Source: Escherichia coli
GTDB taxonomy: Bacteria; Pseudomonadota; Gammaproteobacteria; Enterobacterales; Enterobacteriaceae
NCBI RefSeq assembly: GCF_044647545.1
Contig: NZ_CP172818.1
DNA: 64,000 nucleotides
Strand: one strand, 5' to 3'
Shown one piece after another: positions 38,996 to 39,379 of the stretch (its first letter is position 1; each line of letters starts with the position of its first letter). Below the pieces are notes generated by a model, which saw nothing but the letters and a program-made list of their open reading frames with translations, was not told where the DNA came from and made no database searches. The position numbers and the translations under genes were made by a program.

Positions 38996-39379
38996 GGGGG
39001 GGGGGAGTGAATGTCATTCTCGAGCTCTTTATTCGCTGCCGCTCCGCAAACAGTAACCTTCCACCTTCTCCCATCCACCACCGGCCCCTCGCCTCGTAGC
39101 CGGCCGGCGAGCCCCGGCAGCCAGCATGGTCTCTGCCGGGGTACGGGTGTGGTCAGGCCCCTACTGCCCTCTGCGGGGGGGGGGGGGGGGGGGGGGGGGG
39201 GGGGGGGGGGGGGGGGGGGGGGTGCGGTCGGGTCGGCGTTGTGCTCCCGGGGGGGGGGGGGGGGGGGGGGGGGGGGGGGGGGGGGGGGGGGGGGGGGGGG
39301 GGGGGGGGGGGGGGGGGGGGGGGGGGGGGGGGGGGGGGGGGGGGGGGGGGGGGGGGGGGGGGCCTCAGGCAGGGGGGGG
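38996..39379. repeat. cluster of G homopolymers (10, 48, 114 and 8 nt) separated by short GC-rich spacers
   Basis: Counted directly: G-runs at 38996-39005, 39175-39222, 39249-39362 and 39372-39379; an overlapping XhoI/SacI site (ctcgagctc) lies at 39019-39027. Confidence 0.95.

Follow-up and report, generated by a model that had tools for sequence, protein, structure and literature searches.

Natural phase-variable G tracts are roughly 8-20 nt long, are located within an intact gene or immediately ahead of one, and vary in length among related strains. Besides such tracts, which form the contingency loci of Neisseria, Campylobacter and Haemophilus, two assembly defects are well known that come close to the locus described here. 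The first is the poly-G tail generated by two-colour Illumina instruments, on which "no signal" is called as G (fastp paper, section 2.5, PMC6129281; also PMC8002175). These tails consist of pure G over tens to more than 100 nt, have no biological counterpart and turn up in unrelated assemblies. The second is the uncorrected long-read patch, which shows a sharp border between polished and error-dense sequence while remaining collinear with the true locus, in which deletions and homopolymer compression dominate the errors, and which comes with a junk read end and a skipped stretch of the genome.

Here, we analyze a 64-kb stretch of Escherichia coli DNA (64,000 nucleotides, referred to below as the window) in which four G homopolymers lie close together. 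The locus resembles both defects in the respects just listed. We estimate a probability of about 92% that the G runs, and the defective block of which they are part, are a sequencing and assembly artefact, that is, a patch from a read or consensus of low quality that was left uncorrected at a mis-join, and not DNA of the organism.

Clean sequence on either side of the block

Judged from its sequence, the window is a segment of an ST648-like E. coli chromosome. Its gene content includes narZ, followed further on by fdnGHI, ddp, dosCP, gadC and gadB, and then ydeO, safA, ydeP, fimbrial genes, hipA and lsr. Two parts of it were compared with the genome of E. coli ST648 (NZ_CP008697, locus L127):

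12613-38989, clean left flank (yddG to gadC and gadB, and the last 60 nt of pqqL), normal-quality assembly
41222-48372, clean right flank (ydeO, safA, ydeP, ydeQRS and a truncated usher gene), compared with NZ_CP008697

The left flank is 99.985% identical to the reference (3 mismatches and 1 gap in 26,378 bp), and its part 31000-38989 shows 100.0% identity to several complete ST648-lineage genomes. The right flank differs from the reference at a single position (47946) in 7,151 bp, and 42313-48372 is 99.983% identical to a further E. coli locus (L124). The YdeP allele of the window is listed in 4,949 blocks of the public collection, and the contigs that we read from strains with an identical YdeP mostly carry an intact ydeO-ydeN-ydeM-yneP-yddA region alongside it.

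Some additional differences from related genomes were observed elsewhere in the window. At 12296-12306, 642 bp are absent within the gene for a leucine-rich-repeat protein when compared with otherwise 100% identical ST648-lineage genomes (e.g., IMT16316), and at 12613-12621, 1,538 bp, corresponding to most of an OmpC-like porin gene beside yddG, are absent in a comparison with genomes such as IMT16316. The two junctions have overlaps of 11 nt and 9 nt, respectively, and the absences could be real microhomology deletions or could reflect repeat collapse in the same imperfect assembly. At the other side, the identity with the ST648 reference ends at 48372, inside a fimbrial usher gene that is cut to 382 aa (47146-48294). 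A second mis-join at this position was considered and rejected: the identical junction is present, unbroken, in other E. coli, where it is annotated as ydeT, and it is therefore a natural deletion allele. The window is thus a mosaic at 48372, combining ST648-like with other E. coli sequence.

Anatomy of the defective block

Between the two flanks, 2,232 nt (38990-41221) stand in place of 10,477 bp in relatives (L127 27991-38467), an interval with pqqL, yddB, yddA, ydeM, ydeN and the final, 3'-terminal codons of ydeO. The borders are abrupt, the last clean base being 38989 and the first clean base 41222. At the left join, 7,238 bp of the relatives are skipped (pqqL, yddB, yddA and the 3' end of ydeM). 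The block is made up of the following features:

38990-38995, plus strand, "cgttaa", the first six bases past the break and the reverse complement of the preceding "ttaacg" (window compared with reference)
38996-39005, plus strand, G10 run (regex scan and direct reading)
39006-39174, plus strand, 169-nt C-rich spacer, no match found
39175-39222, plus strand, G48 run (regex scan and direct reading)
39223-39248, plus strand, 26-nt G-rich spacer, alignment no better than that of shuffles
39249-39362, plus strand, G114 run (regex scan and direct reading)
39363-39371, plus strand, 9-nt spacer "cctcaggca" (direct reading)
39372-39379, plus strand, G8 run (regex scan and direct reading)
39380-39392, plus strand, end of the unalignable head; the local alignment begins at 39393
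39393-40874, plus strand, deletion-riddled collinear copy of the ydeM and ydeN coding sequences (genes on the minus strand), without an intact ORF
40875-40957, plus strand, 83 nt of G/T-rich low-complexity junk that replaces about 866 bp of ydeN
40958-41221, plus strand, degraded ydeN-ydeO intergenic region and last ydeO codons, with the final error at 41221

A preliminary description of this DNA had reported four G homopolymers of 10, 48, 114 and 8 nt. Their exact coordinates were reproduced by our regex scan and by reading, the spacers between them are GC-rich as described, and the three pseudo-ORFs that had been listed (39011-39403, 39126-39425 and 39153-39488) are present and translate to poly-Gly or poly-Pro; the ORFs across the G runs yield no other translations. 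The anomaly itself is therefore real as a feature of the record. Its proposed extent of 38996-39379 proved too short, since this interval, the most conspicuous part, makes up just 17% of the defective 38990-41221.

Apart from the four G runs, the regex scan detected no homopolymer of at least 8 nt in the 64-kb window, and no further G run of 7 nt or more. With the block excluded, the longest homopolymers in the window are A7, C7, G6 and T7, and the G runs in five E. coli reference loci are at most 6 nt long. Under an iid expectation, 64 kb should contain 0.6 G runs of at least 8 nt, 0.04 of at least 10 nt, 2e-25 of at least 48 nt and 7e-66 of at least 114 nt. A phase-variable poly-G tract was rejected as a candidate. 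The block shares with contingency loci only the presence of a run of G; its long runs measure 48 and 114 nt, their ORFs encode only poly-Gly and poly-Pro, ydeM and ydeN are destroyed, and the tracts are absent from relatives. As for G-quadruplexes, the text of the runs meets any definition of a G4 motif, but such a motif in an erroneous consensus is uninformative about the DNA in the cell.

The lengths of the runs also bear on the idea that they are scaffold gaps, that is, N runs of estimated size, which were rewritten as G, with the spacers representing islands of partly filled gaps. Gaps of variable length with small islands are typical after the use of a scaffolder and a gap closer, the window does not contain any N, and one of the runs is exactly 10 nt long, which is a common gap size. 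However, 48, 114 and 8 nt are unconventional as gap sizes, and no common tool is known to us that would replace N with G. In addition, long G runs of similarly variable length occur in many unrelated public assemblies (see below), and rewritten gaps would leave the C-depleted, deletion-riddled 1.8 kb on their right flank unexplained. Rewriting of gaps is, in our opinion, a very improbable origin of the runs.

The head of the block (38990-39392), which has a size of 403 nt and includes all four G runs, had no counterpart in our searches. When it was compared by dynamic programming with both strands of the local 48-kb reference, its score equalled that of shuffled sequence. The 169-nt spacer was searched at E<=1 against 5,426 E. 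coli genomes without a match, and its matches with plasmids and phages were at chance level only; it is possible that this spacer is a degraded copy of some far-off part of the genome. An Rfam scan of 38400-41400 returned no family. We also observed that the left break (38983-38995) reads ttaacg/cgttaa, which is a perfect palindrome of 12 nt with the junction at its centre. Such a palindrome has a probability of 1 in 4,096 by chance; it may be fortuitous, or may be the trace of a fold-back or chimeric read.

The remainder of the block is alignable with the relatives. Thus, 39393-39654 aligns with L127 35229-35620 with a score of 106.5 (shuffles, 43.8 +/- 3.2), and 39659-40874 aligns with L127 35635-37214 with 364 bases deleted, 0 inserted and 75 mismatches. 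When the latter segment was aligned with the corresponding locus of E. coli Z1323CEC0015 (L001), the same 364 deleted and 0 inserted bases were obtained together with 61 mismatches. In the bin 40893-40992, 785 reference bases are lost. Further downstream, 40958-41027 aligns with L127 38081-38167 with a score of 31.5 (shuffles, 19.0 +/- 2.7), and 41031-41221 contains 49 differences from NZ_CP008697. Read-through of a PacBio SMRTbell adapter at 40875-41050 was rejected as a candidate, because the A/G-rich part of this region is collinear with the ydeN-ydeO intergenic region and its strand is unflipped. The ydeO frame (41204-41974, minus strand) survives, with the damaged last codons turning the C-terminus of its product from ...MSALAI(stop) into ...MSALGLIIC(stop). 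Exact look-ups of this altered YdeO, of the products of the three pseudo-ORFs and of the truncated usher yielded no recorded protein.

A deletion-dominated and strand-specific error profile

The alignable part was compared with its reference in a global alignment with symmetric gap costs (39393-41260 against L127 35229-38506, corresponding to 3,278 reference bases). This alignment pairs 1,808 identical and 58 substituted bases. It has 2 inserted bases, and 1,412 reference bases are deleted in 320 separate events, 178 of which involve a single base. At the divergence of the flanks, 0.5 differences would be expected over these 3,278 bases, whereas the observed number of events is about 380. Evolution cannot produce so many events within a strain whose sequence otherwise equals that of its relatives.

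The losses are also unevenly distributed among the four bases. Over the 1.2 kb with the best alignment, the proportion of reference bases without a counterpart in the window is 46% for C, 22% for T, 15% for G and 14% for A. The loss of C (148/319) exceeds that of G (52/350) with p=3e-19 in a Fisher test, and the loss of T (104/481) exceeds that of A (60/430) with p=0.003. The fact that a base is lost far more often than its complement indicates a read-out of one strand and not mutation of duplex DNA. The base composition of the block is skewed as well: the GC skew amounts to +0.47 and +0.39 over 39001-41000, and most of 39200-41100 has only 0-9 C per 100 nt, compared with a window mean of 24.5 +/- 6. 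The alignment shows that the right 1.8 kb of the block is the true ydeM-ydeN-ydeO' sequence, read on one strand with about 25-35% of the bases dropped, C foremost.

These results bear directly on whether the G tracts could be physically real. The preliminary description had left two branches side by side without preferring either, namely an artefact due to a mis-join or gap fill, and real tracts prone to G-quadruplex formation and replication slippage. In its most favourable version, the second branch would hold that a real G-rich insertion replaced pqqL-yddA, and that the G tracts subsequently wrecked the downstream sequencing through slippage or G-quadruplex stalls. The degraded stretch does adjoin the runs on their 3' side with respect to the G-rich strand, and in ensemble sequencing (Sanger or Illumina) the signal is known to degrade downstream of long homopolymers. 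Furthermore, deletions of pqqL'-yddB-yddA occur naturally in other E. coli: strain Z1323CEC0015 lacks the pqqL N-terminus, yddB and yddA (L001 4428-5591), which means that loss of these genes is not impossible in itself, although the end points of that deletion are unlike those of the block. On the other hand, the degradation spans 1.85 kb with fluctuating quality and includes a second collapse at 40875-41050, far from the G runs, which is unlike a loss of phasing; single-molecule platforms, moreover, do not lose phase. We know of no mechanism that makes G tracts of 48 or 114 nt in an enterobacterial chromosome, and the five reference loci mentioned above contain no G run of more than 6 nt. 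Finally, the block was found in 0 of 5,426 E. coli genomes, and none of these complete genomes covers at least 80% of 37500-42500. A real insertion is consequently the least probable of the explanations that we considered, and we regard it as extremely unlikely; its failure lies in the absence of the block from E. coli genomes and in a surrounding sequence that is incompatible with evolution at the divergence of the flanks. The artefact branch is the one that holds, as the G runs are located precisely where 99.985%-identical sequence stops abruptly, about 7.2 kb are skipped, and a degraded copy of ydeM and ydeN follows.

Long G runs in public genomes

A scan for G or C runs of at least 80 nt (the G80 scan) was carried out with one genome per species for 100,044 species. 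It retrieved at least 120 stretches from unrelated taxa, which, among the matches listed, included Nocardia, Pedobacter, Streptomyces, Burkholderia, Paenibacillus and Shewanella, as well as archaeal and bacterial MAGs. The occurrence of the runs across unrelated taxa argues that they are assembly by-products that do not depend on the taxon. Among the matches listed, 89 runs are located at most 150 nt from a locus end and 20 are internal. The end-near runs are mostly directed outward, like read tails (70 of these 89 listed runs, against 19 in the opposite orientation). The listed matches also comprise 17 tiny contigs that consist almost wholly of G or C and have a length of about 2k+1, and most of the long G/C runs among them are present at contig ends of SPAdes or MEGAHIT assemblies. 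Isolate assemblies of Nocardia carnea and Pedobacter sp. ASV19 carry poly-G at dozens of contig ends. The two-colour poly-G artefact explains the contig-end cases of this survey.

The internal runs have a different background. Among the matches listed, 16 of the 20 are found in Canu "tig" contigs of MAGs from Danish activated sludge. Clusters in these Canu contigs (loci L013, L025, L026, L062, L066 and L068) contain many G runs with short GC-rich spacers between them, and low-complexity junk rich in G/T or in A/G sometimes lies at their edges. Up to 18 G runs of 31-150 nt were seen within 1.4 kb, internally, in these nanopore/Canu species-representative MAGs. Examples of such internal clusters in species-representative MAG loci are:

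L025, 417-1843
L013, 1313-2006
L068, 2272-2646
L066, 9418-9739

Whether two-colour data could have contributed to these clusters can be judged from the instruments involved. The HiSeq X is a four-colour instrument. In the activated-sludge MAG study, PromethION R9.4.1 data were processed with Guppy 2.2.3 flip-flop, Canu, Racon and medaka, and the HiSeq X was the source of the Illumina data (PMC8012365). The Canu clusters were therefore obtained without two-colour data, which implies that a long-read pipeline is able to generate internal clusters of poly-G. The clusters have the same look as the head of the block and as 40875-41050 in the window. The analogy is partial, however: the MAG clusters often have normal-looking flanks (as in L025), whereas the G runs in the window are followed by a long deletion-riddled stretch.

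On the basis of the survey, it might be argued that poly-G read tails from a two-colour Illumina instrument (NextSeq, NovaSeq or MiniSeq) were present at a contig end that became joined, at the scaffolding, gap-filling or polishing stage, to a separate stretch of poor quality. The artefact is documented (PMC6129281, PMC8002175), most of the surveyed runs are located at contig ends and 70 of 89 point outward among the matches listed, and the run lengths of 48 and 114 nt would fit within a 150-nt read. Nevertheless, such tails are found at the ends of reads or contigs with accurate flanks, whereas the block has multiple internal runs next to an indel-riddled stretch. The four runs extend over 384 nt and include a 169-nt non-G spacer that is longer than one read, and similar internal clusters come from a pipeline that had no two-colour data (PMC8012365). 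Furthermore, errors adjacent to a two-colour tail should be of the substitution type only, yet there are 320 deletion events in the adjacent 1.8 kb. Because Illumina reads cannot yield a collinear 1.8-kb stretch with 320 deletions and 2 insertions, this explanation would need a second, unrelated defect at the same spot. We therefore consider two-colour tails unlikely as the source of the G runs, though less so than the explanations discussed above.

Origin of the block

In our preferred reading, the block is an unpolished patch at a mis-join, and three hallmarks of an uncorrected patch are seen: the errors are collinear and dominated by indels, the borders are abrupt, and the bias is strand-specific. 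Most likely, one noisy long read, or the graph consensus of only a handful, would make up the patch. Such a read may have bridged a break between gadB/pqqL' and ydeO, and the G runs would be the output of a base-caller on a signal without sequence information, for instance where the end of the read was stalled, dark or dominated by noise. The assembler or a gap-filler would then have joined the read at its poor end, giving rise to the mis-join. A graph consensus would strip unsupported insertions and retain deletions. Polishing would have failed on the block, as accurate reads are unable to map to a template that misses a quarter to a third of its bases.

With respect to the platform, the deletion-only profile and the internal multi-run poly-G clusters favour a nanopore-type origin by way of a graph consensus, which fits better than raw reads of Illumina or PacBio; we would give such an origin about an even chance. 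Usual consensus errors are milder than those in the block, in which about 25-35% of the bases and 46-67% of C are lost with almost no insertions. To our knowledge, a C dropout of 46% with virtually zero insertions exceeds the usual published raw-read error profile of any platform.

Implications

The block combines two familiar assembly defects, namely junk poly-G sequence and a long-read patch that was left unpolished at a mis-join, and it is not a real feature. Had the tracts been real, no homopolymer known from an enterobacterial chromosome would come near them in length, and they would form a natural site of G-quadruplex formation and replication block. As it stands, the block is biologically unimportant and its practical use is that of a quality flag. 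The long poly-G runs to which it belongs are widespread in public prokaryotic assemblies, species-representative genomes included, and they should be masked before genomes are scanned for homopolymers, G-quadruplexes or novel ORFs. For this E. coli strain, the consequence is that the record misrepresents about 10.5 kb in the acid-resistance neighbourhood (pqqL, yddB, yddA, ydeM, ydeN and the YdeO C-terminus). Automatic annotation of this record would yield five genes wrongly scored as lost or decayed, a spurious YdeO variant, and "proteins" made of poly-Gly or poly-Pro.
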